Source of the DNA: an uncultured Clostridiaceae bacterium
GTDB taxonomy: Bacteria; Bacillota; Clostridia; Peptostreptococcales; Natronincolaceae
Direction: 5' to 3'
Assembly: GCA_964387405.1 (NCBI GenBank)
Contig: CAYLXY010000001.1
Span: 1-25,668, forward strand
Length of the DNA: 25,668 bases
Positions 1,784 through 24,223 of this stretch are shown one piece after another. The first letter of the stretch is position 1, and every line of letters begins with the position of its first letter. Below the pieces are notes generated by a model, which ran no database searches, was not told the DNA's origin, and saw only the letters and a program-made list of their open reading frames with translations. Both the position numbers and the translations under genes were made by a program.

Positions 1784-1800
1784 CCAGGGGGGTTAAGGGT

Positions 1801-3108: not shown

Positions 3109-3112
3109 TAAT

Positions 3113-3177: not shown

Positions 3178-3210
3178 GTTTGGTAACACATAGTTTATAA
3201 TTGGTATCAT

Positions 3211-3324
3211 AGGGGCAGAGGCAAAAAACACGGGTCGGCATGGAAACCGACTCCTACGGTAATTTATATATATTCATTGTAGGGGCTGGTTTCCATGCCA
3301 ACCCGTAAGACTCTGTCTGCCCCT
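3211..3324. repeat. Second GTAG-type REP doublet nested inside an outer inverted repeat
   Basis: 3230-3257 (revcomp gtaggagtcggtttccatgccgacccgt) and 3279-3306 (gtaggggctggtttccatgccaacccgt) form an inverted pair; flanked by AGGGGCAGA (3211-3219) and TCTGCCCCT (3316-3324). Confidence 0.82.
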
Positions 3325-3343
3325 TGCGGCTAGGAGGTGAAAT

Positions 3344-4825
3344 ATGAGAAAAAGAGCTAGTGGAATATTACTACATATATCTTCCTTACCAGGTGACTAT
3401 GGAATAGGGGATTTTGGTAAAGAAGCATATAATTTTATTGATTTTTTAGTAGAGGCAAAACAGAAATATTGGCAGATACTACCTTTGGGTATAACTGGTT
3501 TTGGAGATTCCCCATATCAATCTTTTTCTGCATTTGCAGGTAATCCATATTTTATAGATTTAGACCAACTAATAGAATTGGGTTATATAAGTAAAAGCAA
3601 AGTAAAGGACTTTGAATTAGGCAAAGATCCTACTAAGGTTGATTATAAATTATTATATAAAAATAAAATAAAAATTTTAAGAATAGCATATGAAGCAGCA
3701 AAAGAAAAGTTGTGGGATGACCTAGAGTTATTCTATAGGAATAATTATCATTGTTGGCTAAGGGATTTTTCACTTTTTATGAGTATAAAGACTAAAAACA
3801 ATGGTATTCCATGGTCTGACTGGGATAGACATTACAAAGATTCTAATTCAAAAGAAGTTATTGATTTTGAAAAAAACAATAAAAATGAAATTTATTTTTG
3901 GATATTTACACAATTTTTCTTTTTTAATCAATGGAAAAAACTTAAAAACTATGCAAACCAAAAAGGGGTACAAATTATAGGAGATCTACCTATATATGTA
4001 TCTGAGGACAGTGCTGATGTTTGGGCAAATCCAGAATTATTTAATTTAGATGAAGAACTATGTCCTATTACAATTGCAGGTGTACCACCAGATGAGTGTT
4101 CGGCTACTGGTCAGCTTTGGGGTAATCCAGTATATGATTGGGATGAAGTGGAAAAGCGAGACTATTTATGGTGGGTACAAAGGGTGAAAAACTCATTTGA
4201 GCTTTATGATGCTTTAAGAATAGATCATTTTAGGGGTTTTGAATCCTACTGTGAGTTTGATTATGGTGCAAAGGATGCAAGGAATGAAACCTGGGTAAAA
4301 GGTCCAGGGCTTAAATTATTTGATAAAATAAAGGAAGAATTAGGGGAATTGAATATTATAGCAGAGGATTTAGGATATATAACTGAGGAAGTAGAGCAAT
4401 TAATAGAAGAAACAGGCTTTCCAAGTATGAAAGTGATTCAATTTGCCTTTGATCCAGAAAAAGATAGTGTTTATTTGCCCCACAACTATACTAATAATTC
4501 TGTGGTTTATACTGGAACTCATGACAATCCTACTGTTTTAGGATTAATAGAAGAAATGCCAGAAGAAGAATTCCAATGTGCAAAGAGATATTTAAAACTT
4601 ACAGAAGAAGAAGGATATAATTGGGGATTTATTAGAGGCGCTTGGAGTTCTCCAGCCTATTTAGCAATAGCACCTATGCAAGATTTCCTAGGTTTAGATA
4701 ATAGGGCTAGGATGAATACTCCATCTACTAGTGAGGGTAATTGGACTTGGAGAATGGAAAAAGATAGCTTAACAGAAGAATTGGTAAAAAAAATAAGGGA
4801 ATTGACTAACATATACAGGAGGTAG
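3344..4825 (+). CDS. malQ: 4-alpha-glucanotransferase / amylomaltase (GH77)
   Basis: 493 aa; SGILLHISSLP, DSPYQSFS, RIDHFRG, AEDLG, YTGTHDN, RMNTP motifs; RBS AGGAGGTGA at 3332-3340. Confidence 0.95.
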   Translation: MRKRASGILLHISSLPGDYGIGDFGKEAYNFIDFLVEAKQKYWQILPLGITGFGDSPYQSFSAFAGNPYFIDLDQLIELGYISKSKVKDFELGKDPTKVDYKLLYKNKIKILRIAYEAAKEKLWDDLELFYRNNYHCWLRDFSLFMSIKTKNNGIPWSDWDRHYKDSNSKEVIDFEKNNKNEIYFWIFTQFFFFNQWKKLKNYANQKGVQIIGDLPIYVSEDSADVWANPELFNLDEELCPITIAGVPPDECSATGQLWGNPVYDWDEVEKRDYLWWVQRVKNSFELYDALRIDHFRGFESYCEFDYGAKDARNETWVKGPGLKLFDKIKEELGELNIIAEDLGYITEEVEQLIEETGFPSMKVIQFAFDPEKDSVYLPHNYTNNSVVYTGTHDNPTVLGLIEEMPEEEFQCAKRYLKLTEEEGYNWGFIRGAWSSPAYLAIAPMQDFLGLDNRARMNTPSTSEGNWTWRMEKDSLTEELVKKIRELTNIYRR

Positions 4826-4829
4826 GATT

Positions 4830-7187: not shown

Positions 7188-7282
7188 AAAACCCTTGTAA
7201 GCATTTTAATACTGTCCGACTCGGAAAGACATATAGTTTTTGAAATTTTTGAAATAGTCCTGAATAAAATAAAAAACAAGAC

Positions 7283-7327
7283 AATAATAAGAGGTATAGC
7301 TTAAATTTGCTTATACCTTTTATTATT
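7283..7327. terminator. Probable (bidirectional) intrinsic terminator after glgP
   Basis: AATAATAAGAGGTATA (7283-7298) pairs with TATACCTTTTATTATT (7312-7327) with one G-U wobble; A-rich left flank and T-rich right flank. Confidence 0.65.
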
Positions 7328-7348
7328 TGTATTTTAAACTTGTATAAT
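7320..7348 (+). promoter_or_regulatory. Possible promoter for glgB-glgC-glgD-glgA-pulA
   Basis: Perfect TATAAT at 7343-7348, just past the terminator and about 30 nt before the glgB start; -35 match is weak (TTATTA). Confidence 0.3.
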
Positions 7349-7378
7349 TTGGGTATAAGTTTTTAAAGGGGGATTATT

Positions 7379-9274
7379 ATGGAGCATAAGTATTTTTATT
7401 GGGAAGATTGGGAAGAAGATTGTTATTTATTTCATGAAGGTACATCTTATAAAAGTTATGAGTTTTTGGGAGCTCATTCTATTAACCTAGATAATAAAGA
7501 AGCAGTAAGATTTATAGTATGGGCGCCTAGGGCTAGGGAAGTATATCTTATGGGTGACTTTAATGATTGGCATGAAGAGAATCTGCCTTTGGAAAGATTG
7601 GGTCAATCAGGTTTATGGAATATTTGCCTAGAAAATGTAGAAGATTTTGATTCATATAAGTACAGAATAATTTCTTATGAGGGAGAAGTTAGAATTAAAG
7701 CAGACCCTTACGCATTTCATGCAGAAACAAAACCTAAATCAGCCTCTAAATATTACGATTTAAAAGGTTTCCAATGGGAAGATGAATCCTGGTTAAAACT
7801 AAGGGAGAAAATTTCTGATGATGAAAAACCAATGTCCATATACGAAGTGAACCTATCTTCTTGGAAAAGAAATTCAGATAATTCGGTATACTCTTATATG
7901 GAATTAGCCAAAGAGCTAGTTAGATATGTAAAAACCATGGAATTTACACATGTTGAACTTATGCCTATTATGGAACACCCCTATGATGGGTCTTGGGGCT
8001 ACCAGCAGACAGGGTACTTTTCACCAACTAGTAGGTTTGGAACACCAAAGGAATTCATGTACTTAATAAATGAATTTCATAAAAACGAAATTGGTGTAAT
8101 ACTAGATTGGGTTCCTCTTCATTTTTGCAAGGATGATCATGGCTTAGCTAGATTTGACGGGACTGAGTGTTTTGAGTCTTCAAACAAAGCTTTGGCAGAA
8201 AACAACAATTGGGGAACATTAAATTTTGACTATAGTAAACCAGAAGTGATAAGTTTTTTAATTTCAAATGCGGTATATTGGCATGACTATTATCATATAG
8301 ATGGACTTAGGATAGATGCAGTAGCCTATATGCTTTATTTAAATCATGGAGGAGAAGATATTAGAAATCAACATGGAGGCTATGAAAACCTTGAGGCTAT
8401 CGAGTTCATAAAGAAATTAAATCAAGTATTATCAGATTATTTTCCCTCTACTAAGATTATTGCAGAAGATAGTAGTGATTGGCCATTAGTTACTAGACCT
8501 GTAAAAGATGGAGGATTAGGATTTAAGTATAAGTGGAATATGGGATGGATGAATGACACCTTGGAATACATGGAAATGGATCCTATATTTAGAAAGGGCA
8601 ATCAAAATGCACTGACTTTTGGTATTACTTATTGTTTTTCTGAAAAGTATATATTGCCTTTAAGTCATGATGAAGTAGTCCATGGTAAAAAAAGTTTACT
8701 AAATAAAATGCCAGGCTCTTATGATGAAAAATTTGCAGGTCTTAGACTTTTATATCTATACATGTATGCTTACCCAGGTAAGAAGCTTTTATTTATGGGT
8801 GGAGAATTTGGACAGTTTATAGAGTGGGATGAAAAAAAGGAATTAGACTGGCATTTATTAGATTATGAAAAACATAATAAAGTACAAAGATTTATTAAGG
8901 ATTTAAATAAATTTTATAGGGAAGAAAGCTGTTTATATGAGTTAGATAATAGCTATGATGGTTTTGAGTGGTTAGAACATACTAATCATGCAGAGAGTAT
9001 TATAGCTTTTGAGAGAATAAATACTTTAGGGGAAAAGATAATAGCTATATTTAATTTTACACCAGTTGAAAGAAAGGATTATCCTATAGGTGTAGATTAT
9101 TTAGATACTTATCAAATGATATTCAATACAGATCAGGCTAAGTATGGTGGAAATTTAGCTAGGAGAATACATTATAAATCCAAAGAAGAATCTATTCATA
9201 ATAGAGAATATGCTTTAAGAGTAGATCTACCACCATTAGGGGGAATTATATTTAAAAAAAGATTAAATAAATAG
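7379..9274 (+). CDS. glgB: 1,4-alpha-glucan branching enzyme (GH13, CBM48; short-N-terminus type)
   Basis: 631 aa; FHEG, HVELMP, SWGYQ, DWVPLHF, LRIDAV, AED, LSHDEVVHGK, LFMGGEFGQ motifs. Confidence 0.96.
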   Translation: MEHKYFYWEDWEEDCYLFHEGTSYKSYEFLGAHSINLDNKEAVRFIVWAPRAREVYLMGDFNDWHEENLPLERLGQSGLWNICLENVEDFDSYKYRIISYEGEVRIKADPYAFHAETKPKSASKYYDLKGFQWEDESWLKLREKISDDEKPMSIYEVNLSSWKRNSDNSVYSYMELAKELVRYVKTMEFTHVELMPIMEHPYDGSWGYQQTGYFSPTSRFGTPKEFMYLINEFHKNEIGVILDWVPLHFCKDDHGLARFDGTECFESSNKALAENNNWGTLNFDYSKPEVISFLISNAVYWHDYYHIDGLRIDAVAYMLYLNHGGEDIRNQHGGYENLEAIEFIKKLNQVLSDYFPSTKIIAEDSSDWPLVTRPVKDGGLGFKYKWNMGWMNDTLEYMEMDPIFRKGNQNALTFGITYCFSEKYILPLSHDEVVHGKKSLLNKMPGSYDEKFAGLRLLYLYMYAYPGKKLLFMGGEFGQFIEWDEKKELDWHLLDYEKHNKVQRFIKDLNKFYREESCLYELDNSYDGFEWLEHTNHAESIIAFERINTLGEKIIAIFNFTPVERKDYPIGVDYLDTYQMIFNTDQAKYGGNLARRIHYKSKEESIHNREYALRVDLPPLGGIIFKKRLNK

Positions 9275-9314
9275 GAGAGATAATAGGAAAGTATAAAAAA
9301 GGGGTGAGCTTTCT

Positions 9315-10472
9315 ATGGTAAAAGGTAATGTAGTAGCTATGCTTTTGGCTGGAGGACAAGGGTCTAGATTAAAGTTATTAACACAAGATACAGCAAAACC
9401 TGCAGTACCCTTTGGTGGGAAATATAGAATTATAGATTTTACTCTTAGTAATGCTGCAAATTCTGGTATTGATAATATTGGAATACTGACTCAATATAAA
9501 CCTTTTGAGTTAAATGCTCATATAGGAATAGGAACATCTTGGGATTTTGATAGAAGCACAGGAGGACTTAGAATATTACCTCCTTTTACTAGTAAAACTA
9601 GTGGGAAGTGGTATACTGGTACTGCTAATTCTATTTATCAAAACATGGAATATATAGACAGTCTAAATCCAGAATATGTTCTTGTTTTATCTGCAGACCA
9701 TATATATAAAATGGATTATAAAAAGATGTTGAAATATCATATAGAAAAAGATGCCGATGTAACTATAGCAAGTATTGACGTTCCTTGGGAAGATGCTTAT
9801 ATGTTTGGTATATTAAATGTAGATTCAAATAATAAAATAGTGGAATTTGATGAAAAACCAGAAAATCCTAAAAATAATATGGCTTCAATGGGTATATATA
9901 TATTTAATTGGCATGCTCTTAAGTATTATCTTATAAAGGATAATAAAAACAAAAACTCAGAGCATGATTTTGGCAAAGATGTCTTACCTTTAATGTTAAG
10001 TGAAGAAAAGCAAATGTATGCATGGAATTTTAAAGGTTACTGGAAGGATGTAGGTACTGTTCGTAGTTATTGGGAAGCAAATATGGATTTACTAGATAAA
10101 AATAGTGGTCTTAATTTATATGACAAAAGTTGGAGAATATATACAAAAACAAAGCATCTACCACCACAATATGTAGGTAGTAGCAGCTCCATAAACAATA
10201 GTTTAATAAGTGAAGGCTGCTCGATAGAGGGAAAAATAAATAATAGTGTTATTTTTTCTGGTGCTAGTGTAGAAGAAGGAGCAATAGTTAATGATAGTAT
10301 AGTATTTAGCAATGCTGTTATTAGAAAAGGAACTATATTAGAAAAAGCTATAGTATTAGAAGGTGTAATAGTACAATTTGATGGAAAAATAGACAAAGAA
10401 TCTGAAGATGATATTTGTTTAATTGGACAAGATGATATTCTTATAGAACAGGGGGAAAAGTTATATGTTTGA
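9315..10472 (+). CDS. glgC: Glucose-1-phosphate adenylyltransferase, catalytic subunit
   Basis: 385 aa; [48 protein letters not shown]; C-terminal left-handed beta-helix repeats. Confidence 0.96.
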
Positions 10473-11580
10473 AAGTTGTCTAGGCGTAATAAGTTTTGAT
10501 AATATAGGCAGTGAGTTTGGGGATTTATGTAAAAACAGACCAGCTTATATGCTGCCTTTTGCTGGTAGATACAGAATAGTGGATTTTACCCTGTCTAATA
10601 TGATAAATCATGGTATTCGTACAATAGCAGTTTTTACTGGGGAAAAGGTACAATCAACTCTAAATCATTTAGGGGATGGTAGGCCTTGGGATTTAAACAG
10701 AAGAATGGGAGGACTATCTATATTTCCACCTTTGTTTGATGATAAAAAAAGGCGAAGCGGAGATATATATCAATATCATGTAACAGAAGATTACTTTACA
10801 AACTCTAGAGCAGAATATATATTTATTGCTAGTCCTAATGTTTTAGCCAAGGTAGATTTAGTTGAAGCCTTTGAGTATTTTTTACAAACAGATGCAGATA
10901 TTACTCTTTTATATAAAAAACAGACTAACGATAGTGATGCTTATATAAATAGTGAAAAATTAATATTAAATGATAATGGAGAGCTTGTTAACATTGGTAT
11001 TAATTTAGGATCGGAAGATGAATTTAACTTATTTATGTATATGGGTTTTGTAAAAAAGGAAATATTTTTAGAAATAGTTAAAAGAGGAATGGAAACAGGC
11101 AAAGATCTTTATTTTAAACAGGCTATGATAAGTAAAAAAAGTGAATACAAAATTAATAGTTATGAATTTAAAGGTCATGTAGAGCACATTAAAGGATTTA
11201 AATCTTATTATAATGCAAATATGAATTTATTAGATGATGAAATATTCAGTGAGCTATTTTACAAAAATGGAACAATACTTACCAAATCTGAAGATGAGCC
11301 ATCTACATTTTATATTGCAAATCCCAAAGTAAAAAATTCTTTAATAGCAAATGGTTGTATAATAGAAGGGCAAGTAGAAAATTCTATTTTATTTAGGGGA
11401 GTTAAAGTGGGTAAAAACGCAGTAATTAAAGATTCCATTGTAATGCAAAAATCTGTTATTGAAGAGGATGTTGTACTTACAAATACAATATTGGATAAGT
11501 ATACTAGAGTAAAAAAGGGAGTAAGTATAGTAGGTACTAAGGAGAATCCATATATAGGAGAAAAAAATTCAATAATATAA
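10465..11580 (+). CDS. glgD: Glucose-1-phosphate adenylyltransferase, GlgD subunit
   Basis: 371 aa; GlgC-paralogous [17 protein letters not shown] and WDLNR, degenerate nucleotidyltransferase loop, [12 protein letters not shown]; overlaps glgC by 8 nt. Confidence 0.93.
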
Positions 11581-11621
11581 AGAAAAAACCTAGTTTTGTT
11601 TTATAAAATGCTGTATTAGGA

Positions 11622-13058
11622 GTGATAAAGATAGATATACTATATGTAACATCAGAGGCTTTTCCCTTTGTAAAAACAGGAGGCTTAGGTGATGTGGCTG
11701 GTTCTTTACCCTTAGCAATTAAAAAACAGGGTCATGATATTAGGGTAGTTTTGCCACTTCATTCTGCTGTAGAAGAAAAGTATGTAAAGAAGATGGAAAA
11801 AATCGCAGAATTCACTGTGGATCTCGGTTGGAGAAATCAATATGTAGGTGTTTTACAATTAGAATATGAAGATATGATCTTTTACTTTATAGATAATGAA
11901 TATTATTTTAAAAGAAACAATCTTTACGGAGAGTTTGATGATGGGGAGAGGTATGCTTATTTCTCTAAAGTTGTAGCCTTACTTCCTAAAATAATAAATT
12001 TTAAACCAAATGTCATACATACAAATGATTGGCATTCTGCCTTGGTTAATCTGTATGTAAAGGATTTTAGAAAAGGCGATTGCTATTATAATGATATAAA
12101 AACTGTATTTACTATACATAATTTAAAATATCAGGGTATATTTGATGCTTGGATATTATCTAGTATTTTAGGATTATCAGAAGAATATTTTCAGGATGAT
12201 GGTATGAAATATTATGATAAGATAAATTATATGAAGGCTGGTATAGTTTATTGTGATAAATTAACTACAGTATCTCAAACATATGCAGAAGAGATAAAAT
12301 ATCAGTTTTTTGGTGAAGGTTTAGAAGGTATAATAAGAAAAGAAGAATATAAGTTAGTAGGAATAGTTAATGGAATAGATTATGATGTTTATAATCCAGT
12401 AGAAGATAAATATATTGAATATAATTATGATTTTAATAATTTATGCAATAAATATAAAAATAAAGAAAAAATACAAAAACTTTATGGATTAGAAGTAAAA
12501 GAAGATATTCCTCTTATAGCTATGGTAACGAGAATGGTAGCTATGAAAGGTATAGACTTAATTAAACATGTTTTAGGAGAACTTGTACAAGAAGATATTC
12601 AATTAGTGGTACTAGGTACAGGGGATAAGGAATATGAGGATTTATTTAAATTTTTTGAATATAGTTATCCATCTCAAATAGCCGCTAGAATCTATTTTAG
12701 CGAAGAAGAAGCACATGAAATTTATGCCGGAGCAGATATGCTTCTAATGCCATCCATGGCAGAACCTTGTGGTATATCTCAATTAATAGCTTTAAGGTAT
12801 GGTACAATACCTATTGTAAGAGAAACTGGTGGATTAAAGGATACAGTTATAGCTTATAATAAATTTAATCAAGATGGTAATGGTTTTAGCTTTAAAAATT
12901 ACAATGCTCACGAGCTCTTATTCACTATAAAGAATGCTATTGAAATATATAAAAATGATGAAAAGGCTTGGAAAAATTTAATTTTTAATGCTATGAGCTC
13001 AAAGAATGATTGGGAGGCCTCCTCACTTGAATATATAAACTTGTATGAAAAACTATAA
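11622..13058 (+). CDS. glgA: Glycogen synthase (GT5); 5' end uncertain (GTG 11622 or ATA 11631)
   Basis: KTGGLGDV, HTNDWH, FTIHNLKYQG, NGIDY, EPCGISQL, TGGLKDT motifs. Confidence 0.96.
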   Translation: MIKIDILYVTSEAFPFVKTGGLGDVAGSLPLAIKKQGHDIRVVLPLHSAVEEKYVKKMEKIAEFTVDLGWRNQYVGVLQLEYEDMIFYFIDNEYYFKRNNLYGEFDDGERYAYFSKVVALLPKIINFKPNVIHTNDWHSALVNLYVKDFRKGDCYYNDIKTVFTIHNLKYQGIFDAWILSSILGLSEEYFQDDGMKYYDKINYMKAGIVYCDKLTTVSQTYAEEIKYQFFGEGLEGIIRKEEYKLVGIVNGIDYDVYNPVEDKYIEYNYDFNNLCNKYKNKEKIQKLYGLEVKEDIPLIAMVTRMVAMKGIDLIKHVLGELVQEDIQLVVLGTGDKEYEDLFKFFEYSYPSQIAARIYFSEEEAHEIYAGADMLLMPSMAEPCGISQLIALRYGTIPIVRETGGLKDTVIAYNKFNQDGNGFSFKNYNAHELLFTIKNAIEIYKNDEKAWKNLIFNAMSSKNDWEASSLEYINLYEKL

Positions 13059-13068
13059 GAGGTGAAAT

Positions 13069-14973
13069 ATGCATAGAGATATTAGAAATTTAGGTGCTAA
13101 TTATACTCCTACTCAAACCATATTTAGAGTGTGGGCACCTAGTAGAGAAGAAGTAGAAATTTTACTATATGAAGATTGGAATAAGGAATGTAATAGAGCA
13201 TTTAAAATGGAGAAAATGCCTGACGGTGTTCATGAATGCACAATAAGAGAAAATTTAAAGGGCAAGTACTATACTTATTTAGTAGAAAACTCCTATGAAG
13301 TTACAGACCCTTATTCTGTAGCTTCTTCTATAAATAGTAAAAAAAGTGCAATTATAGATTTAAAAGAAACTAATCCGGTGGGATGGGAAAGTCATACTAT
13401 ACCTTCAACGGATTGGAAATGTGAAGAAATAATATATGAACTGCATATAAAAGATTTTACTATTCACCCAAGTAGTGGTGCTAAAAATAGAGGTAAATAT
13501 TTAGGTTTAGTCGAGGAAGGTACATCTTATAATGGATTGGCTACAGGAATTGATCATTTGAAAGATTTAGGGGTTACTTGTGTTCATTTAATGCCTGTTT
13601 ATGATTATTTAACAGTTAAAGAGGATAAAGAATATTTTCATAATGATTATAATTATAATTGGGGCTATGATCCAGAGTTGTATAATGTACCTGAGGGATC
13701 TTATGCAACAGAACCTACAGAACCTACAAATAGAATATTCGAATTAAAAACAGCTATAATGAAATTACATGAAGCGGGAATTAAAGTAATAGTAGATGTT
13801 GTATATAATCATACTTATTTAGGTAAAGATTCTAATTTTAATATTTTGTATCCAAATTACTATTATAGAATAAATAATGATGGAAGTTTTTCTGATGGCT
13901 GCGGATGTGGAAATGAACTAGCAACAGAAAAACCTATGGTTAGAAGTTTTGTTATTGAGTCTTTAAAGTTTTGGCTAGAAGAGTATAAAGTAGATGGTTT
14001 TAGATTTGACTTAATGGCTCTTATAGATAGAGATACTGTTAAGATGGCAGTAGCTACCCTAAAGAGTATTAAGGATGATCTAATAATATACGGAGAACCT
14101 TGGGCAGCTAATTATACAGTATTACCAGACTATATGATGAGCACAAAGGAAACATTAGAAAAATCAGATGTTTCTATGTTTAATGATATATATAGGGATG
14201 CTATAAAGGGAGATAATGATGGGTATATAAAAGGCTTTAGTCAAGGGGATATGAAGCACAAGATTGACGTAGAAAAAGGAATTATTGGAGGTTTTTTTAA
14301 ACTTCCACATAGGTCTATAAACTATATAAATTCCCATGATAATTTAATATTATATGATAAAATGAAAAAAGTATCTAAATTTACTTGTGAAGATGAGATT
14401 ATAATGCATAATAAATTAGCTTTAAGTATTTTATTTACTTCTCAAGGGATTCCCTTTATACATGCTGGAAATGAGTTTTTAAGGACTAAATATTTAAATA
14501 AAAATACTTATAATTCTCCAGTATCTATTAATCAGATAGATTGGAGCTTAAAGGATAGAAATATTGATTTTTATAATTATGTTAAGGATCTAATTAGAAT
14601 CAGAAAAATGTATAAAGAATTTACTATGGCAAATCCAGAAGAAATTAAGAGAAGAATTAAGTTTTTAGATATGAGATTTCATTGTAATTTAATAGTTTAT
14701 ACAATTAATAGAAAAATTACCTGTGATAGTTTGTTAGTAATTCATAATGGTAATGATAAGGAAGCAATCTTAAAGACTTCTAATTTAATAGCACACTTAG
14801 AATATTGGTATAGTGTTACACCTGAAAGTATAACCCTAACTCAAGTATTTGGTAATCAAGGTATTATAGAAGATAAAAAAGATTTAGTAGATGTAAAGGA
14901 AGTGATTATACCCAAATATAGCACTTACATATATGAAGCAACTGCAGGAACAGACATATATTGTATAATTTAA
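13069..14973 (+). CDS. pulA: Type I pullulanase / glycogen-debranching enzyme (GH13, cytoplasmic)
   Basis: 634 aa; FRVWAP, YELHIKDF, YNWGYDP (pullulanase signature), DVVYNHT, GFRFDLM, YGEPW, SHDN; no signal peptide apparent. Confidence 0.92.
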   Translation: MHRDIRNLGANYTPTQTIFRVWAPSREEVEILLYEDWNKECNRAFKMEKMPDGVHECTIRENLKGKYYTYLVENSYEVTDPYSVASSINSKKSAIIDLKETNPVGWESHTIPSTDWKCEEIIYELHIKDFTIHPSSGAKNRGKYLGLVEEGTSYNGLATGIDHLKDLGVTCVHLMPVYDYLTVKEDKEYFHNDYNYNWGYDPELYNVPEGSYATEPTEPTNRIFELKTAIMKLHEAGIKVIVDVVYNHTYLGKDSNFNILYPNYYYRINNDGSFSDGCGCGNELATEKPMVRSFVIESLKFWLEEYKVDGFRFDLMALIDRDTVKMAVATLKSIKDDLIIYGEPWAANYTVLPDYMMSTKETLEKSDVSMFNDIYRDAIKGDNDGYIKGFSQGDMKHKIDVEKGIIGGFFKLPHRSINYINSHDNLILYDKMKKVSKFTCEDEIIMHNKLALSILFTSQGIPFIHAGNEFLRTKYLNKNTYNSPVSINQIDWSLKDRNIDFYNYVKDLIRIRKMYKEFTMANPEEIKRRIKFLDMRFHCNLIVYTINRKITCDSLLVIHNGNDKEAILKTSNLIAHLEYWYSVTPESITLTQVFGNQGIIEDKKDLVDVKEVIIPKYSTYIYEATAGTDIYCII

Positions 14974-15025: not shown

Positions 15026-15052
15026 GTTAAATTAATAGAAGTATTTTAAAAT

Positions 15053-15352
15053 CAAATGCTTTGATGAGAAATAGTAAAAATATATATTCTTTTATAGAGA
15101 GTTCCCGGTTGGTGAGAGGGGCATTAGAAAATATTTTGAACACGTCTCTGAGCTATGCACCGAAACCTTTGAGGAAGTAGATTGCATCGGAAAATTCGCA
15201 CCCGTTATAGTGCTAGAGTATAATCAAGGAAATAATATCTTGACGTACTTGAAGAGATTGATGCTGTAAAGCATCAATAAAAAGAGGTGGGACCACGTGA
15301 GTATATATAACTCTCGTCCTCTAGCTATAGCTAGAGACGAGGGTTTATTTTA
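15053..15352 (+). promoter_or_regulatory. Histidine T-box riboswitch (transcription attenuator)
   Basis: Stem I with AGTA and GGTTGGTGAGAG elements; specifier GAA-CAC (His codon at 15141-15143); stem III ATTGATGC/GCATCAAT (15257-15278); T-box GAGGTGGGACCACG (15284-15297) with UGGG-ACC bulge, where G fits the C73 discriminator of tRNA-His; terminator at 15313-15352. Confidence 0.95.
15313..15352 (+). terminator. T-box attenuator terminator
   Basis: CTCGTC-C-TCTAGC / GCTAGA-GACGAG stem with TATA loop followed by a T-rich tract; CGTCCTC also pairs with the T-box as antiterminator. Confidence 0.9.
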
Positions 15353-15394: not shown

Positions 15395-16612
15395 ATGAAA
15401 TCAAGAAGAGTATTATTACCAGAAGGAGTACAAGACCTACTTATTGACGATTGTATTCATCGCAGACAAATCGAGGATAAGATTATGAACAACTTTACAC
15501 AATCAGGTTATATGGAAGTTAGCAGCCCTACTTTAGAATATTTTGATTTATTTTCTACAGATTATTTAGGAAATTATGGGGACAACACATTTAAGTTTAT
15601 GGATACAAACGGAAGAATAATGGTCCTACGTCCAGATTGTACTGTGCCTATTGTTAGAATACTTTCTACCAAAATGAAGGATTTTGTCTTTCCATTAAGA
15701 CTATGTTATGTGCAGGATGTATTTCGTATAGACGAGGAACAAGCTGGCAAGAAGAGAGAATTTAGGCAGGCAGGAGTAGAGCTATTTGGTATTGACTCCT
15801 ATAAGGCAGATGTGGAAATAATAATTACAGCTATAGAAAGCTTAAAAGATCTAGGTTTGGAGAATTTTAAAATTGAGATAGGTCAAACTAAATTATTGAA
15901 AGGAATTTTGGAAGCTATAGAAATAGCAGATGAGGAAAAACAGGCAATTATTGAAAACATGGAAAATAAAAACCTTGTTGCATTTGACAGTCTATTAGAA
16001 GACTTACCTATAGAAAAAGATATAAGAACTGTATTAAGAAAATTACCAAGATTATTTGGAAGTACAAAGGAAGTTTTAAATGAAATAAATAATCTTCCAC
16101 TAACATCTTCTATGAAAGAGGCAGTAAAAGAATTGGAGAAAATATGTAAATCCATTGAAGAATATGGTTTAGGACAGTATATATCATTGGATTTAGGAAT
16201 GATTACTACTTTAAAATATTATAGTGGAGTGATTTTCAAAGGTTTTACTAAGGAATTAGGGGAAGTATTATTAAGTGGAGGTCGTTATGATAGACTTTTA
16301 AAAGATTTTGATATGGAATCTCCAGCCACTGGTTTTGCATTTTTAATAAGTAAAATTACAAAAGCTTTAAAGATACAAGAAAATTTAAAGATAGATAAGC
16401 AAAAGCATGTACTTTTATTAGAAGACCAAGGGTGCAAAGCGACTGCTAATATAGTAGCTTCCTTGAGAAAACAAGGATATATTGTAGAAGTAAGTCTTTT
16501 AAAAGATAAAGAAGATTTGTTGGAATATATAGAAAGAAGAAAAATAGATGAAGTTATGAAAATAGATGAAGATGGGAATGTCAATATTATAGAAGATTTA
16601 GGAGGGATATAG
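15395..16612 (+). CDS. hisZ: ATP phosphoribosyltransferase regulatory subunit
   Basis: 405 aa HisRS-like; LPEGVQD, LRPDCTVPIVR, REFRQAGVELFG, YYSGVIF, GGRYD; first gene after the His T-box. Confidence 0.93.
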   Translation: MKSRRVLLPEGVQDLLIDDCIHRRQIEDKIMNNFTQSGYMEVSSPTLEYFDLFSTDYLGNYGDNTFKFMDTNGRIMVLRPDCTVPIVRILSTKMKDFVFPLRLCYVQDVFRIDEEQAGKKREFRQAGVELFGIDSYKADVEIIITAIESLKDLGLENFKIEIGQTKLLKGILEAIEIADEEKQAIIENMENKNLVAFDSLLEDLPIEKDIRTVLRKLPRLFGSTKEVLNEINNLPLTSSMKEAVKELEKICKSIEEYGLGQYISLDLGMITTLKYYSGVIFKGFTKELGEVLLSGGRYDRLLKDFDMESPATGFAFLISKITKALKIQENLKIDKQKHVLLLEDQGCKATANIVASLRKQGYIVEVSLLKDKEDLLEYIERRKIDEVMKIDEDGNVNIIEDLGGI

Positions 16613-17245
16613 GTGGAAAAGGTAAAATTAGGTTTAACCAAGGGAAGATTACTTAAACATACTATTAAATTATTAGAAAAATCAGGAATTAACTGCGATC
16701 CACTAAAAGAAGATAATAGAAAGTTAGTATTTTTATTAGAAGATTATAATATAGAAGTAATTTTACTAAAAGCAGCAGATGTTCCTACTTATGTAGAGCA
16801 TGGAGTAGTAGATATGGGAGTTGCAGGTAAGGATGTTTTATTAGAGCAGGAAAAACACTTATATGAGGTATTAGATTTAAAGATGGGACAGTGTAAATTT
16901 TCTGTGGCAGGTAAACCTTCTATGAAGAACGGAAAGAAACATTTGCTTGTAGCTACAAAGTATCCAAATGTTGCTAAAAAACACTTTGCAGGAAAAGGTC
17001 AGTCTGTAGAAATTATACGACAAGAAGGCTCTGTAGAGTTAGCACCTATAATGGGATTATCCGATGTTATTGTGGATATTGTAGAAACAGGTAAGACTTT
17101 AAAAGAAAATGGGCTAATAGTCTTAGAGGATATAGCTGATATTAGTGCTCGTTTAGTAGTAAATGAAGTTAGTTATAAAACCAAGAAAAAAGATATAAGT
17201 AGAATTATTGATTTAATTGAAAAAGCAGTAGACCAGGAGGCGTAA
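16613..17245 (+). CDS. hisG: ATP phosphoribosyltransferase, short form
   Basis: 210 aa, GTG start; TKGRL, DVPTYVEHG, GKDVLLE, ATKYP, GSVELAP, DIVETGKTLKENGL. Confidence 0.96.
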   Translation: MEKVKLGLTKGRLLKHTIKLLEKSGINCDPLKEDNRKLVFLLEDYNIEVILLKAADVPTYVEHGVVDMGVAGKDVLLEQEKHLYEVLDLKMGQCKFSVAGKPSMKNGKKHLLVATKYPNVAKKHFAGKGQSVEIIRQEGSVELAPIMGLSDVIVDIVETGKTLKENGLIVLEDIADISARLVVNEVSYKTKKKDISRIIDLIEKAVDQEA

Positions 17246-17247
17246 TT

Positions 17248-18537
17248 ATGATGAAAACTATTGATTTACAAGGTTCTGGCAGAGCTGAATTTCTAAAAGA
17301 ACTAGAAGAAAGAAGTACAGTGGATTTTAAAGATTATGAAGAAACTGTTAAAAATATATTGTCTAAGGTAATGGTTGAAGGAGATCTAGCTTTATTTAAA
17401 TATACAAAAGAATTTGATGGAGCAGATTTAAGTAAAAAAGGAATGAAAGTAAGTGATGAAGAAGTAAAAGAAGCTTACAATGAAGTTTCAGAAGATTATT
17501 TAAAAGCCATAAATTTAGCTATTAAAAACATAACAGATTATCATAAAAATCAAATTCAAAATTCATGGTTTACTTCATCAGATGGTATTATTTTAGGACA
17601 AAAAGTAACACCAATTGCTAGTGTTGGCATTTATGTACCAGGTGGTACAGCAGCTTACCCCTCTTCTGTGTTGATGAATGCTATTCCTGCTAAGGTAGCA
17701 GGAGTAAAGAGGATTGCAATGATAAGTCCACCAAATAAAGATGGAAAATTACCAGCAGGAGTTTTAGTTGCAGCTAAGGAATTAGGTATTAATGAAATAT
17801 ATAAGGTAGGCGGTGCTCAAGGTGTAGGCGCTTTAGCCTATGGGACAGAAACTATAGAAAAGGTTAATAAAATTGTAGGTCCGGGAAACATTTATGTAGC
17901 AACTGCAAAACGTGAAGTTTATGGTTATGTTGATATTGATATGATTGCAGGTCCTAGTGAGATTTTAATAATTGCTGATGATTCTGCTAATCCTAAATAT
18001 CTAGCAGCAGACTTACTATCCCAAGCAGAACATGATGAGCTTTCTTCTTCAATACTTATTACGACTAGTAAGGAAATAGGTAAAGCTGTGGTCAAAGAAG
18101 TTCAAATACAAACAGCTAAATTAGAAAGAAAAGATATAATTGAAAAATCCTTAAGTGATTATGGTAAAGTTATTTTAGTAGAAGATCTAGAAGAGGCAGT
18201 AAAATTATCTAATGAAATTGCTCCAGAACATTTAGAGTTATGTGTAGATAATCCATTTGATTTATTAGATAAAGTAGAAAACGCAGGAGCTATATTTTTA
18301 GGAAACTATTCACCAGAGCCCTTAGGGGATTATTTAGCTGGACCTAATCATGTTTTACCAACTAGTGGAACTGCTAAGTTTTATTCACCTTTATCAGTAG
18401 ATGATTTTATAAAAAAATCTAGTATCATTTATTATAATGAAAAAGCTTTAAAAAATGTAAAGGATGAAGTTATGACTTTAGCAGAGTCAGAAGGACTAAC
18501 TGCCCATAAAAATTCTATTAAAGTGAGGTTCGAATAG
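17248..18537 (+). CDS. hisD: Histidinol dehydrogenase
   Basis: 429 aa; YVPGG, KIVGPGN, AGPSE, DLLSQAEHD, APEHLE, AGPNHVLPT. Confidence 0.97.
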   Translation: MMKTIDLQGSGRAEFLKELEERSTVDFKDYEETVKNILSKVMVEGDLALFKYTKEFDGADLSKKGMKVSDEEVKEAYNEVSEDYLKAINLAIKNITDYHKNQIQNSWFTSSDGIILGQKVTPIASVGIYVPGGTAAYPSSVLMNAIPAKVAGVKRIAMISPPNKDGKLPAGVLVAAKELGINEIYKVGGAQGVGALAYGTETIEKVNKIVGPGNIYVATAKREVYGYVDIDMIAGPSEILIIADDSANPKYLAADLLSQAEHDELSSSILITTSKEIGKAVVKEVQIQTAKLERKDIIEKSLSDYGKVILVEDLEEAVKLSNEIAPEHLELCVDNPFDLLDKVENAGAIFLGNYSPEPLGDYLAGPNHVLPTSGTAKFYSPLSVDDFIKKSSIIYYNEKALKNVKDEVMTLAESEGLTAHKNSIKVRFE

Positions 18538-18538
18538 T

Positions 18539-19594
18539 ATGTTAAATAGTTTAGTTAAAGATAATATAAAAAGTCTTCTAGCTTATAAAGTAGAAGACTC
18601 TGCAAATATGGTAAAATTAGATGCTAATGAAAATAATAATGTAAGCTATCTATTAAATGAAAAGCTGAGTAAAGCCATTATGGAATCAAAAATAAATGAG
18701 TATCCTGATTCAGACTGTGTGGAGCTTAGAAGTATTTTAGAAAAGGAACTTAAAATAGATTCCGAGAAAATAATAGTAACTTGTGGGTCAGATCAGTTAA
18801 TCGCTTTAATCATGAGTGCTTTTATAGATAATGGGGACAAAATGTTAACTCATACTCCTACTTTTGGTATGTATAAAATTGCAAGTCAAATAGCAGGAGG
18901 ACTTACTATAGAAGTACCTTTAAATGATGATTTTACTTTTGATTTAAATAGTTTTTTAAAGGCTATGGAAAAAGAGAATCCTAAAGTTGTATTTCTTACT
19001 AATCCTAATAATCCTACGGGAAATATTATAGCTAGGGAAGAAATAATAAAAATATTAGAATCAAGCAAGGGTATAGTAGTTGTAGATGAAGCTTATTACG
19101 AATTTTATGGAGAATCTGTAATTGATTTAATAGATAAGTATAAAAATTTGATTGTTTTAAGAACTTTATCTAAAGCATACGGATTAGCAGGGGCTAGAGT
19201 AGGTTATGGACTTGCATCAAAAAAATTTATGGATATTTTATACAAAGTAAAACCCCCTTATAATGTTGCCAGTTTAAGTCAAATGTCTGCTAAAATTTGC
19301 TTGGAAAATAAAGATATAATGTATAAAGCAGTAGATGAAATTGTCAAAGAGCGAGAGAGGATTTTAGAATTATTAAAGGAAATACCTAATTTAAAGATTT
19401 TTGAAAGTTATGCTAATTTTATTTTATTTAGATTAGATAATGCTAAAGAAGTTTATAATTATTTATTAGATAATAAGGTATTAATACGATATTTTGGAGA
19501 TAAAGGACCTCTAGCTGGATGTCTTCGCCTTTCTATTGGAAAAAAAGAAGAGAATGAGTTGGTTATAAAGTTACTTAAAGAATTACTTGTATAA
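18539..19594 (+). CDS. hisC: Histidinol-phosphate aminotransferase
   Basis: 351 aa; LDANEN, YPD, NPNNPTG, VVDEAY, RTLSKAYGLAGARVG (PLP lysine). Confidence 0.95.
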   Translation: MLNSLVKDNIKSLLAYKVEDSANMVKLDANENNNVSYLLNEKLSKAIMESKINEYPDSDCVELRSILEKELKIDSEKIIVTCGSDQLIALIMSAFIDNGDKMLTHTPTFGMYKIASQIAGGLTIEVPLNDDFTFDLNSFLKAMEKENPKVVFLTNPNNPTGNIIAREEIIKILESSKGIVVVDEAYYEFYGESVIDLIDKYKNLIVLRTLSKAYGLAGARVGYGLASKKFMDILYKVKPPYNVASLSQMSAKICLENKDIMYKAVDEIVKERERILELLKEIPNLKIFESYANFILFRLDNAKEVYNYLLDNKVLIRYFGDKGPLAGCLRLSIGKKEENELVIKLLKELLV

Positions 19595-19681: not shown

Positions 19682-20272
19682 ATGAAAAATAGAGTATGTA
19701 CTTTAGAACGGTCTACTACAGAAACATCCATAAAAATGGATATAAATATTGATGGTATGGGTGAAAATAATATAGATACGGGAATTCCATTTTTTGATCA
19801 TATGTTGATGCAAATTTCCCGTCATGGTTTTGTAGACTTAAATATTGAGGCAAAGGGAGATATTGAAGTAGACTTTCATCATACAGTAGAAGATGTAGGT
19901 ATTATTTTAGGCCAAGCTATTGCTGAGGCCTTGGGAGATAAAAAAGGAATTGTAAGATATGCTACTTCCTTTATTCCTATGGATGAAGCTTTATCCACAG
20001 TATCAATGGATATAAGTGGCAGGCCTTATTTTCATTATGAGGCAGAATTTATGGGAGAATTAAGTGGAAACTTTGAAGTGCAACTTATAGAGGAGTTTTT
20101 TAGGGCAGTGGCTTTTAATAGTGGAATGACTCTTCATGTTAGAAATTTATATGGTAAAAATAGTCATCATATTATAGAGAGTATTTTTAAGGCCTTTGCA
20201 AAGGCTCTAGATAGTGCTACTGGTTACGATCCTAGAATAGAAGGAGTTATGTCTACAAAAGGGAAATTATAG
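19682..20272 (+). CDS. hisB: Imidazoleglycerol-phosphate dehydratase (monofunctional)
   Basis: 196 aa; RSTTET, TGIPFFDHML, DFHHTVED, PMDEAL, NSHHIIE, STKG. Confidence 0.97.
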   Translation: MKNRVCTLERSTTETSIKMDINIDGMGENNIDTGIPFFDHMLMQISRHGFVDLNIEAKGDIEVDFHHTVEDVGIILGQAIAEALGDKKGIVRYATSFIPMDEALSTVSMDISGRPYFHYEAEFMGELSGNFEVQLIEEFFRAVAFNSGMTLHVRNLYGKNSHHIIESIFKAFAKALDSATGYDPRIEGVMSTKGKL

Positions 20273-20280
20273 GTGTATTA

Positions 20281-20393
20281 TGTCATTCTGAACGCAGTGA
20301 AGAATCTTAGGTCTTAAAAGCAAGATTCCTCGTTTCGCTCGAAATGACAATGAAATAGAGGGGTCGTCATCCTTTGCTTTGCTCAGGATGACA
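20281..20393. repeat. Cluster of three TGTC/CGTC-tagged palindromic repeat units
   Basis: 20281-20308 TGTCATTCTGAACGCAGTGAAGAATCTT; 20322-20349 inverted copy (revcomp TGTCATTTCGAGCGAAACGAGGAATCTT); 20366-20393 third unit with perfect GTCATCCT/AGGATGAC stem (revcomp TGTCATCCTGAGCAAAGCAAAGGATGAC). Confidence 0.85.
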
Positions 20394-20434
20394 GAGATTG
20401 AGTATGTTTAATTAGAAAGGAAGTGTGTTAGAAC

Positions 20435-21142
20435 ATGGTAATTTATCCAGCTATAGATATTAAAAATGGAAAATCTGTAATGTTAACCCAAGGAAAATTT
20501 GATGAAGAAAAGATATATTATGAAGATCCTAGACAAGTGGCGAAAATGTGGCAAGAAAAGGGGGCTAAGTTTTTACATATTGTGGACTTAGACGGTGCAT
20601 TAGAAGGGAAAAGCAAAAACCTTTCAATTATTAAGGAAATTGTTAAAGAAGTAAATATACCTATTCAATTAGGTGGAGGTATTAGAAGCTTACAAACAAT
20701 AAAAACATTAATAGATATTGGTGTAAATAGAGTCATTATTGGAACCAAAGCTATAGAAGATAAAGAAATGTTAAAAGAAGCAGTAGATATGTATGGGGAA
20801 AAGATTGTAGTAGGTATAGATGCTAAATCTGGCTATGTTGCAATGGATGCTTGGACTAAAACTAGTACAGTGGATGCTTTGGAATTTGCTAAAGAAATAG
20901 AATCTTTAGGAGTAAAAACTATTATATATACAGATATAGCAATGGATGGAATGTTAAAAGGACCTAATTTTGAGGCGACTAAAAAGATGAATGAAAGTGT
21001 ATCTATAGATCTTATAGCATCTGGTGGAGTATCTTCTGAAGATGATTTAAAGAAATTATCAGAGATTGGAGTGGCTGGAGCTATAGTTGGAAAAGCTCTC
21101 TATGAAGGGAAAATAGATTTAGCTAATTTAAAGGTGGTATAG
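20435..21142 (+). CDS. hisA: ProFAR isomerase
   Basis: 235 aa; YPAIDI, LHIVDLDGA, QLGGGIRS, VGIDA, YTDI, SGGV, VGKALY. Confidence 0.96.
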   Translation: MVIYPAIDIKNGKSVMLTQGKFDEEKIYYEDPRQVAKMWQEKGAKFLHIVDLDGALEGKSKNLSIIKEIVKEVNIPIQLGGGIRSLQTIKTLIDIGVNRVIIGTKAIEDKEMLKEAVDMYGEKIVVGIDAKSGYVAMDAWTKTSTVDALEFAKEIESLGVKTIIYTDIAMDGMLKGPNFEATKKMNESVSIDLIASGGVSSEDDLKKLSEIGVAGAIVGKALYEGKIDLANLKVV

Positions 21143-21145
21143 AAT

Positions 21146-21904
21146 ATGATAGAAAAAAGAATTATACCTTGCTTGGATATTGATAATGGAAGAGTAGTCA
21201 AGGGTGTAAACTTTGTAAACCTAGTAGATGCAGGGGATCCTGTTGAAATTGCTAAGGCTTATGATTTACAGGGTGCAGATGAACTAGTACTTTTAGATAT
21301 TAATGCAAGTAATGAAAATAGGGGTATATTGCTAGATGTAGTAAAAGAAATATCTTCTAATATATCCATACCTTTAGTAGTAGGGGGAGGTATTAAAAGT
21401 GTAGAGGATTGTAAACAAGTCCTTGAAAGCGGTGCTAATAAGATTTCCATTGGCTCAGCTGCTGTAGAAACACCTTCTCTTATTGTAGAGTGTGCAGAAG
21501 CTTTCGGTTCTTCTGCAATAGTTGTAGCTGTTGACGTAAAAGAAGATGAAGATGGTAATTATTATGTATATATAAAGGGTGGTAGGGAAAATACTGGACT
21601 TGAAGCGGTTGCTTGGGCAAAACAAGTAGCAGACTTGGGGGCTGGGGAAATTTTGCTTACTAGTATGGATAAGGATGGGACTAAAAGTGGCTATGATCTT
21701 GATATAACTAGAAAGATTAGTCAAGCTGTAAATGTTCCTATAATTGCCTCTGGTGGTGCTGGTAGATTAGAAGATTTTTATCAGGTATTTACAAAAGGAA
21801 AGGCAGATGCAGCTTTAGCAGCTTCCTTATTTCACTTTAAAGAAATTGTAATTGAAGATTTAAAAGAATATTTAACTAGTAAAGGAATTTATAAAAGAGG
21901 GTAG
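21146..21904 (+). CDS. hisF: Imidazole glycerol phosphate synthase, cyclase subunit
   Basis: 252 aa; [54 protein letters not shown]. Confidence 0.96.
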
Positions 21905-21912
21905 GGATTGAA

Positions 21913-22536
21913 GTGGATAAAGTAAAAGATTTAAAGTTTGATGAAAAAGGTTTAATAGCAGCCATAGTGCAAGATACTAATACAAATGAAGTTCTAATGT
22001 TAGCTTATATGAATGCAGAATCTTTAAAGAAAACTTTAGAAACTGGAGAAACCTGGTTTTGGAGTCGCAGTAGACAAGAATTGTGGCATAAAGGGGCAAC
22101 TTCAGGTCATATTCAAAAAGTAAAAAATATAATTTATGATTGTGATGGAGATGCTCTTCTAGTTGAAGTAGAGCAGCATGGTGTAGCTTGTCATACAGGG
22201 GCTAAAAGTTGTTTTTTTAATGTTCTTTCTCAAGATGGAAATGAGGATAAGACTAGTTCAGATATAATGGAAAAATTATATGAGATTATTAGAGATAGAA
22301 AAGAAAATCCTAAGGAAGATTCCTACACAAATTATTTATTTAATGAAGGATTAGATAAAATTTTAAAAAAGGTAGGAGAAGAGGCAACAGAAGTTGTAAT
22401 AGCTGCTAAAAATCCTGATAAGGATGAGTTGATTTATGAAACGAGTGATTTATTATATCATTTATTAGTTTTATTAAAAGAGAAGGAGATTGCTCCTGGA
22501 GAAATTTTTGCAGAGCTAAACAAAAGATTTAAATAA
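21913..22536 (+). CDS. hisIE: Bifunctional PR-AMP cyclohydrolase / PR-ATP pyrophosphatase
   Basis: 207 aa, GTG start; [27 protein letters not shown] (HisI half); [19 protein letters not shown] (HisE half). Confidence 0.96.
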
Positions 22537-23620: not shown

Positions 23621-24223
23621 TTACTTTGGAATGCAAATTACTTGACCTATTCTTAAAGCATTTGGATTAATACCTGGGTTAACTGCCATAATAGCATTTA
23701 CTGTGGTGTTAAATTTAATTGCAAGATGGTATAAAGTATCTCCAGCCTTAATTGTATAAGGGCTTGTTCCTGCTGGACAAGTATGTGGTGGTCTTGGTGG
23801 TTTAGTGCCACAATTTACACCAAGAGCAGTCCATGTTTGAACACCAACTATTCCATCAACGGCTATATGGGTATCCCTTTGGAAAGCCATTACAGCTGTC
23901 TGTGTTCTAGGACCAAAAACACCATCAATAGATCCAGGGTTGTAACCCTCATTTTTTAAAAGTTCTTGCAGATGTTGGACAGAAGGCCCTCGACTACCAA
24001 TTCTTAGTGTAGGACATGGCATTGTTGTAGGTGGCTGTGTAGATTCTATAGGGATACAAACTATTTGTCCTATAGATAATTTATCTGGATTAACTCCGGG
24101 GTTAGCCGCCACTAAAGCATCAAGTGATATGTTTTGAGCTTTTGCTATTTTATAGAAGGTATCCCCAGCTTTAATAGTGTATGGTGTTGTACCATTAGGG
24201 CAAGAATTTTGTTTATAGTACAT
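23621..24223 (-). CDS. LysM - PG_binding_1 - LysM peptidoglycan-binding protein (probably sporulation-related)
   Basis: 200 aa; two LysM repeats (YTIKAGDT...NPG.NP..L.IGQ..CIP) flanking a PG-binding domain (LRIGSRGPSVQHLQ...DGVFGPRT..AV.AFQ...DGIVG..TW); RBS AAGGAGGAGA on the minus strand at 24231-24240; no signal peptide apparent. Confidence 0.88.
   Translation of the reverse strand: MYYKQNSCPNGTTPYTIKAGDTFYKIAKAQNISLDALVAANPGVNPDKLSIGQIVCIPIESTQPPTTMPCPTLRIGSRGPSVQHLQELLKNEGYNPGSIDGVFGPRTQTAVMAFQRDTHIAVDGIVGVQTWTALGVNCGTKPPRPPHTCPAGTSPYTIKAGDTLYHLAIKFNTTVNAIMAVNPGINPNALRIGQVICIPK

Follow-up and report, generated by a model that had tools for sequence, protein, structure and literature searches.

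A histidine operon without hisH in an uncultured clostridium, and its HisF as a candidate stand-alone, ammonia-dependent imidazole glycerol phosphate synthase

The subject of this report is a histidine biosynthesis operon in a 25.7-kb stretch of DNA (25,668 nucleotides, contig CAYLXY010000001.1, analysed whole and hereafter called the window) from an uncultured Clostridiaceae bacterium, and in particular its HisF, the imidazole glycerol phosphate (IGP) synthase subunit with cyclase activity, which is encoded with no gene for its usual partner HisH beside it. The HisF/HisH enzyme is the textbook example of channelled ammonia and of allostery between subunits, and HisF and HisH are regarded as obligate partners that co-evolve. 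An earlier note, made from the DNA letters alone, proposed that this HisF has evolved for a long time without HisH and works with free ammonia. Here we show that hisH is absent from the operon across a clade of related bacteria, and we argue from sequence comparisons that the HisF in question is probably a stand-alone, free-ammonia-dependent IGP synthase.

The window has a G+C content of about 31% and carries nearly all of its genes on the plus strand. The operon reads T-box(His)-hisZ-G-D-C-B-[162 bp]-A-F-IE, and all eight of its proteins give full-length matches to NCBIfam equivalog models. Its features are as follows:

15052-15324, plus strand: T-box leader ahead of hisZ (Rfam RF00230; 115 bits, gathering score 93; aligned over the full model, 1-219)
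15395-16612, plus strand: hisZ, regulatory subunit of ATP phosphoribosyltransferase (TIGR00443, 331.6 bits, cut-off 271.65)
16613-17245, plus strand: hisG, short-form ATP phosphoribosyltransferase (TIGR00070, 201.8 bits, cut-off 75.75)
17248-18537, plus strand: hisD, histidinol dehydrogenase (TIGR00069, 571.4 bits)
18539-19594, plus strand: hisC, histidinol-phosphate aminotransferase (TIGR01141, 353.5 bits)
19682-20272, plus strand: hisB, monofunctional IGP dehydratase (full-length matches to NCBIfam HisB equivalogs; best model NF002115 with 283.2 bits, below its cut-off of 289, and NF002111 with 269.6 bits, above its cut-off of 231)
20273-20434, no strand: hisB-hisA spacer of 162 bp, the site of hisH in relatives, with two hairpin-forming small repeat units
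20435-21142, plus strand: hisA, phosphoribosylformimino-5-aminoimidazole carboxamide ribonucleotide (ProFAR) isomerase (TIGR00007, 291 bits, cut-off 228.95)
21146-21904, plus strand: hisF, IGP synthase cyclase subunit of the hisH-less type (TIGR00735, 355.8 bits, cut-off 294.55)
21913-22536, plus strand: hisIE, bifunctional phosphoribosyl-AMP cyclohydrolase and phosphoribosyl-ATP diphosphatase (NF002747, 293.7 bits, cut-off 187)

The specifier of the T-box is CAC, for histidine, the specifier loop reading GAA-CAC-G in the Rfam alignment. According to a survey of histidine regulation in Gram-positive bacteria, T-boxes very seldom precede histidine genes in Eubacteriales, and the only ones listed there belong to hisXYZ transporters, for example in Alkaliphilus oremlandii (PMC9413887), which makes a T-box on a biosynthetic his operon in an Alkaliphilus-like organism notable.

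The gene order, the gene coordinates and the lack of a hisH open reading frame (ORF) in the window, all given in the earlier note, are borne out by the NCBIfam matches and by hidden Markov model (HMM) and tblastn searches. Specifically, a HisH HMM built from 120 sequences found no match among the six-frame ORFs of at least 90 amino acids in the window, and tblastn with 20 HisH queries (E<=10) returned chance matches only, the best with E=0.66 and none in the 162-bp gap. No match to a glutamine amidotransferase (GATase) family was seen among the ten non-his window proteins scanned against Pfam, which comprise PGM, PGI, glycogen-metabolism enzymes and MgtC. An assembly artefact was considered as the source of the hisB-hisA junction and rejected, since the same hisB-162 bp-hisA junction was assembled independently from two other samples (L001 covers it whole, L002 from base 12 of the gap).

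The protein itself aligns to TIGR00735 with residues 1-249 on profile positions 1-252, PDB chains of HisF match it down to E=7e-96, and its AlphaFold2 model, a predicted structure, has the (beta-alpha)8 pattern (mean predicted local distance difference test 88.3, predicted TM-score 0.89). One alternative is that it is a re-purposed paralogue of the WbuZ or AglZ/HisF2 type, acting in sugar amidation or another reaction, and partial matches to the WbuZ (270.8 bits) and AglZ/HisF2 (238.8 bits) profiles do exist. Both scores lie under the curated cut-offs of 299.7 and 310, however, while that of TIGR00735 is exceeded; moreover, hisF sits between hisA upstream and hisIE downstream under the control of the His T-box, with no glycosylation genes adjacent. 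Paralogues of this kind normally come with a HisH-like partner of their own. We find re-purposing hardly credible. The window protein is an ordinary member of the HisF family. It lacks defining features of the HisF-HisH complex, having no cognate gene nearby and no D98.

Alignment to Thermotoga maritima HisF and to LUCA-HisF (last universal common ancestor; PDB 4evz) is gap-free to about residue 133, and T. maritima numbering is used for HisF positions unless stated. The catalytic residues D11 and D130 and the loop-1 lysine K19 are kept, as is the gate ring R5/E46/K99/E167; the earlier note had these retained residues right, except that its E168 is the window number of the residue that is E167 in T. 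maritima. Its reading of V78, N98, G103 and S123, together with their codon coordinates, is correct in this alignment, and a further changed residue lies at position 74:

21365-21367, plus strand: codon of S74 (F in canonical relatives; alpha2-beta3 loop, HisH-docking face)
21377-21379, plus strand: codon of V78 (canonical T78; start of beta3, ammonia channel)
21437-21439, plus strand: codon of N98 (canonical D98)
21452-21454, plus strand: codon of G103 (N103 in canonical HisF; catalytic face, immediately after beta4 at its C-terminal end)
21512-21514, plus strand: codon of S123 (canonical Q123; just before beta5, interface)

In the model strands are predicted at 77-80 (beta3), 99-102 (beta4) and 125-133 (beta5). 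Positions 74, 78, 98 and 123 lie at or just before N-terminal strand ends and hence on the barrel face to which HisH docks. Position 103, in contrast, which had been counted among the interface residues, is placed by the model on the catalytic face, directly after beta4 at its C-terminal end. It is among the positions of the two sites that bind the phosphates of phosphoribulosylformimino-5-aminoimidazole carboxamide ribonucleotide (PRFAR), namely G80-G82, N103/T104, D176, G177, G203, A224 and S225, all of which are kept in the window HisF except for N103, now G, and T104, now S; S104 also occurs in a canonical relative (P0003). R251 of the window HisF aligns with R249, the hinge residue that forms a cation-pi contact with HisH W123. 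As for the two interface residues proper, D98 forms a salt bridge to HisH K181 and is repositioned on glutaminase activation (PMC8115485; bioRxiv 10.1101/565457). The earlier note was right to place Q123 at the interface, but its statement that this residue is needed for glutaminase activation was too strong, given that the substitution Q123A has only a minor effect on that activity (PMC12828452) and that S123 occurs naturally elsewhere: it is found with D98 in the HisF proteins of Persephonella, Hydrogenothermus and other Aquificae, and in five background loci with unlinked hisH. S123 alone is therefore not diagnostic, and we rejected it as a stand-alone marker of hisH loss.

Among the best 120 homologues of the window HisF, 20 HisF clusters lack both N103 and Q123, and several of these also lack D98 or T78. 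With the 11 diagnostic columns masked, the 20 form a single clade in a neighbour-joining tree (140/200 bootstraps), inside the Natronincola/Alkaliphilus group. Its named members are proteins from metagenome-assembled genomes (MAGs) titled 'Alkaliphilus sp.' and 'Candidatus Alkaliphilus sp. MAG34', and the nearest canonical HisF proteins are from Natronincola, Clostridium formicaceticum, Serpentinicella and Tindallia. The closest relatives with names (the Alkaliphilus sp. MAGs, Natronincola and C. formicaceticum) agree with the guess of an alkaliphilic or peptide-fermenting source. hisH is missing from all nine of the clade contexts examined among the 20 members (window/L001-2, L003-4, L007-8, L172, L169, L170, L171, L173 and L174); no cognate hisH was found anywhere in the 25.7-kb window, nor at distances of up to 6-10 kb from hisF in the nine contexts, and tblastn found no hisH remnant in the clade loci examined. 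The order hisZ-G-D-C-B-A-F-IE occurs with six of the HisF clusters (P0001, which is that of the window, P0009, P0035, P0015, P0040 and P0011), and hisZ-G-C-B-A-F-IE, with hisD missing as well, with three (P0010, P0031 and P0036). By comparison, the canonical relative P0003, whose HisF is 76% identical to that of the window, has hisB-hisH-hisA; context look-up placed two further related hisH genes in ordinary canonical operons, and for some other canonical relatives the same organism name appears in the HisF and HisH match lists. An apparently near-identical canonical HisF (P0002, ENA, 428 amino acids) was discarded; it contains an internal tandem duplication of residues ~70-245, which is why it ranked second in the homologue search, and is probably an assembly or gene-calling chimera.

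To set these substitutions against a background we used 160 diverse HisF loci among the matches listed from a scan of genome contigs with the clade alignment and a scan of metagenome contigs with the window HisF; relatives in these scans had 53-65% identity among the matches listed. Where hisH lies in the flank (n=111), D98 is found in 111/111, Q123 in 111/111, N103 in 109/111 and T78 in 104/111. Where the flanks, as in some 30% of these diverse loci, contain no hisH (n=49), positions 78, 98, 103 and 123 read TDNQ in 40, TDNS in five, TENC in three (two of them titled Planctomycetia and Candidatus Kuenenia) and TSNR in one, so that 48 of the 49 loci in which hisH is merely unlinked retain D or E at position 98. 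The clade looks very different. Position 74, at which 92% of the background and 95% of canonical relatives have F, is F in none of the 20 (S in 19, T in one); position 78, T in 94% of the background, is T in 10 of 20 (I in eight, V in two); position 98 is D in 12, N in four, S in three and G in one; position 103, N in 98% of the background, is G in 19 and S in one; position 123 is never Q (S in 13, P in two, A in two, E in two and K in one); and R249 is kept in only 12. D98 is lost in 5/10 hisH-less operons against 0/112 hisH-linked ones (Fisher p = 1e-6, phylogeny ignored), and D or E98 in 8/20 of the clade against 1/49 of the unlinked background (Fisher p = 1e-4, phylogeny ignored).

A second, separate case is the operon hisZ-G-D-B-A-F of 'Clostridiaceae bacterium AS04akNAM_68' (L052, 2870-8635), which also has no hisH and has a hisB-hisA gap of 47 bp. 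Its HisF carries S98 and R123 but keeps N103, and it falls outside the clade (grouping with it in 0/200 bootstraps). MAG names with the prefix AS04akNAM denote thermophilic biogas reactor MAGs (PMC7355431). Neither hisC nor hisIE was found within about 6 kb, which makes L052 the weaker case. Taken with the nine clade contexts, it shows that loss of D98, Q123 and T78 co-occurs with the absence of hisH, the comparison of orthologues that the earlier note had proposed, and this pattern of loss is absent from the 111 hisH-linked HisF proteins. The broader proposal of long-term evolution without HisH thus stands up in comparison with relatives, although three of the details brought in its support were wrong or overstated.

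The hisB-hisA spacer was one feature that had been tied to the loss of hisH. It is instead a secondary insertion of small mobile elements resembling miniature inverted-repeat transposable elements (MITEs), with no bearing on that loss. We rejected it as hisH debris or a deletion scar: there is no tblastn signal and the content differs between lineages. The hisB-hisA gap is as short as 30-48 bp in clade relatives. L008 has a gap of only 30 bp; in L007, whose HisF protein does not differ, the gap is 207 bp long with a ~25-bp duplication flanking it, a presence/absence polymorphism of a ~180-bp insertion at the junction. Pieces of the window spacer recur in L003, L007, L069 and L090, including at other intergenic sites, and clade members other than the window lineage have quite different repeats at the hisB-hisA junction. 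It is this polymorphism, the ~25-bp duplication and the lineage-variable content that identify the spacer as a mobile repeat insertion. The intergenic sites concerned are as follows:

20273-20434 of the window
3773-3847 and 5920-5947 of L003
5378-5907 and 6499-6705 of L007
6073-6102 of L008

A small hairpin-forming repeat family with the core GTCATYCTGARCG...GAAGRATC, together with other MITE-like units, occupies intergenic sites of these his operons. The spacer was also rejected as a structured RNA, its fold being no better than those of shuffled sequences (z = -1.13). In a hisH-containing relative a LysM-domain gene lies on the opposite strand between hisB and hisH (L177 5051-5590, L178 4951-5490), and the hisB/hisH junction looks rearrangement-prone; a LysM/peptidoglycan-binding gene also lies just downstream of the operon in the window lineage (window 23621-24223, minus strand).

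Loss of hisH could mean that the pathway is decaying, the bacterium having become a histidine auxotroph whose remaining his genes are turning into pseudogenes. This would agree with the auxotrophy of Escherichia coli and Salmonella hisH mutants (PMC3896937), with the further loss of hisD from the operon in a sub-lineage, and with the state of L172 (ERZ2648073, NODE_818), in which every his gene but hisF and hisIE is broken into pieces. The record name of the last gives a coverage of 1.08, however, and the fragmentation is for that reason most likely sequencing error rather than real pseudogenes. Moreover, each of the eight window genes is intact over its full length, and eight other diverged hisH-less operons likewise have intact genes. 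In pairwise comparisons of the window with six relatives, the ratio of nonsynonymous to synonymous differences (pN/pS) for hisF is 0.20-0.27, the synonymous sites being saturated while pN is 0.09-0.26, and the other his genes behave alike. Such low ratios with saturated synonymous sites indicate purifying selection long after hisH was lost, and hence an operon that is not decaying. The T-box, too, has been kept in functional-looking form. Decay is in our view very unlikely.

In HisF, 101 positions are conserved at 90% or more among the hisH-linked background proteins and likewise among the canonical relatives. At 79 of these the clade, too, reaches 90% or more, including R5/E46/K99/E167, G80-82, D176, G177, G202-203, A224 and S225 as well as D11, K19 and D130, which are invariant in all 20 members. 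The most-changed positions of the interface and channel are 74 (S for F), 78 (I or V for T in half of the members), 98, 123 and 249; those on or near the catalytic face are 12 (I for V), 49 (L for F), 83, 103 (G for N) and 128 (S for A), although the window HisF keeps A128, unlike most of the clade. Replacement of position 98 by N, S or G has happened at least six times, each on a different branch of the clade. These independent replacements, and the five different residues found at 123, make the pattern at both positions look like relaxed constraint rather than co-evolution with a partner or a re-optimised interface.

It could nevertheless be that hisH, or a recruited class I glutamine amidotransferase, is encoded elsewhere in the genome, and that the enzyme is still glutamine-dependent across a remodelled interface. 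Unlinked hisH is common, as the background loci with canonical residues show, and the gate residues and R249 are mostly kept. The operon also already lacks other steps: no histidinol-phosphate phosphatase was found in the window, and L169-L171 have no hisD. The unlinked lineages argue in the other direction as well, however, in that nearly all of them retain D or E98, a residue central to glutaminase activation (PMC8115485), which the clade has replaced repeatedly, and the variety at 123 suggests a released constraint, not a new fixed interface. The best 120 homologues of a HisH from the sister group include those of Alkaliphilus metalliredigens, A. peptidifermentans and A. serpentinus (56-57% identity) and none from the MAGs 'Alkaliphilus sp.' or 'Candidatus Alkaliphilus sp. 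MAG34' that hold clade HisF proteins, a weak argument because MAGs are incomplete and most entries unnamed. This homologue search and two candidate contexts gave ordinary in-operon hisH genes only, which leaves room for a relocated copy. All told, we judge a partner elsewhere to be unlikely, though well short of negligible.

We therefore return to a HisF that works alone. In the scheme we propose, the source organism would be an uncultured Alkaliphilus/Natronincola-like clostridium whose common ancestor with the rest of the clade cleanly lost hisH from between hisB and hisA. The remaining operon would be a working histidine unit, switched on through its T-box by uncharged tRNA-His, and HisF would retain its cyclase reaction, in which PRFAR and a nitrogen donor yield IGP and 5-aminoimidazole-4-carboxamide ribonucleotide (AICAR). 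The nitrogen would most likely come from free cytoplasmic NH3, not from NH3 channelled by HisH; we infer both that NH3 is the donor in vivo and that the rest of the genome encodes no partner. In the absence of a subunit to dock or activate, D98, Q123, residue 74, the channel residue T78 and, in some members, R249 would have become unconstrained and drifted, and the fixed changes near the active site (V12I, F49L and N103G and, in most members though not the window, A128S) may adjust the enzyme to working alone. An alkaline or ammonia-rich anaerobic habitat would supply the NH3, and a hint of such habitats comes from how the relatives are named and from L052, which has a biogas origin. A fuller version of the scheme would have the HisF-only, NH3-dependent synthase permanent across the clade, with I12, L49, G103 and, in most, S128 as adaptations for NH3 capture, the interface decaying neutrally, and L052 as a convergent case, both in ammonia-rich habitats; our confidence in it is evenly balanced.

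Ammonia-dependent activity of HisF has long been known in vitro. In vivo, a Klebsiella pneumoniae hisH mutant is rescued by high NH4+ (PMC5919458), and a Corynebacterium glutamicum hisH deletion mutant shows ammonia-dependent HisF activity, the C. glutamicum hisF also complementing an E. coli hisH mutant (PMC3896937). Several points weigh against the scheme. The hisH mutants of E. coli and Salmonella are auxotrophic even on medium that contains ammonium (PMC3896937). A HisF does not, then, work alone as a matter of course; that needs a better enzyme or more free NH3. The search for hisH covered the window and flanks only, and a relocated hisH or other class I glutaminase is possible; the window operon, without its phosphatase gene, does not encode the whole pathway, and the loss of hisD from the operons of a sub-lineage of the clade, with their other genes intact (L169 4655-10342; L170 4616-10391; L171 5692-11377), indicates that his genes do sit elsewhere in clade genomes. 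In these three operons hisD is either elsewhere or replaced by another dehydrogenase. Furthermore, D98 is still present in the 12 clade members noted above, the gate ring and the window equivalent of R249 are conserved, and the hint as to habitat comes from relatives and L052, not from the window's own sample.

Beyond the operon, pgm, pgi and seven genes for glycogen enzymes (malQ, glgP, glgB, glgC, glgD, glgA and a pullulanase/debranching enzyme) lie directly upstream of it at 41-14973; the last two genes of this block, those for starch synthase (glgA) and an alpha-amylase-family protein, stand just before the his operon of L003 as well. Between the glucose-6-phosphate isomerase and 4-alpha-glucanotransferase genes, at 3230-3306, is a 28-nt inverted repeat (86% complementary, 21-nt loop) that is GC-rich relative to the window and may be a terminator or other repeat element.

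If the proposed scheme is correct, this would be the first natural stand-alone IGP synthase, and an ammonia-dependent side activity, reported only in vitro or in hisH mutants in the papers found, would here be the physiological reaction; in the literature searched, neither a histidine operon naturally free of hisH nor a HisF whose HisH interface has decayed was described. The clade would then be a natural experiment that separates the HisF residues serving only HisH (98, 123, 74, 78 and 249) from the catalytic ones. It would also correct reconstructions that score such MAGs as histidine auxotrophs for want of hisH, link the design of an amino-acid biosynthesis pathway to ammonia-rich or alkaline niches, and offer a simplified, partner-independent HisF scaffold for enzyme engineering.

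Among known systems the closest is the HisF/HisH heterodimer itself (T. maritima, 1GPW and 7AC8; E. coli; LUCA-HisF, 4evz), with which the window protein shares its family, fold, D11/D130/K19, gate ring and operon position. It differs in having no adjacent hisH, in the change of D98 to N and N103 to G, in the changes at Q123, 74 and T78, and in a drift that runs through the whole clade. With the HisF proteins of Klebsiella and C. glutamicum hisH mutants it would share the route by which HisF alone uses free ammonia, proposed here from sequence; those are laboratory mutants of organisms that keep hisH, whereas here a whole clade lost hisH naturally and long ago, with sequence change in HisF besides. 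WbuZ and AglZ/HisF2 belong to the same barrel family and their profiles match in part, but the window protein scores below their cut-offs and stands in a histidine, not a glycan, context. Natural ammonia-only amidotransferases do exist, for example the NH3-dependent NAD+ synthetase NadE that has no glutaminase domain, and AsnA. Although these are different enzyme families, the likeness lies in a synthase half that is kept and a glutaminase half that is dispensed with where ammonia is available.

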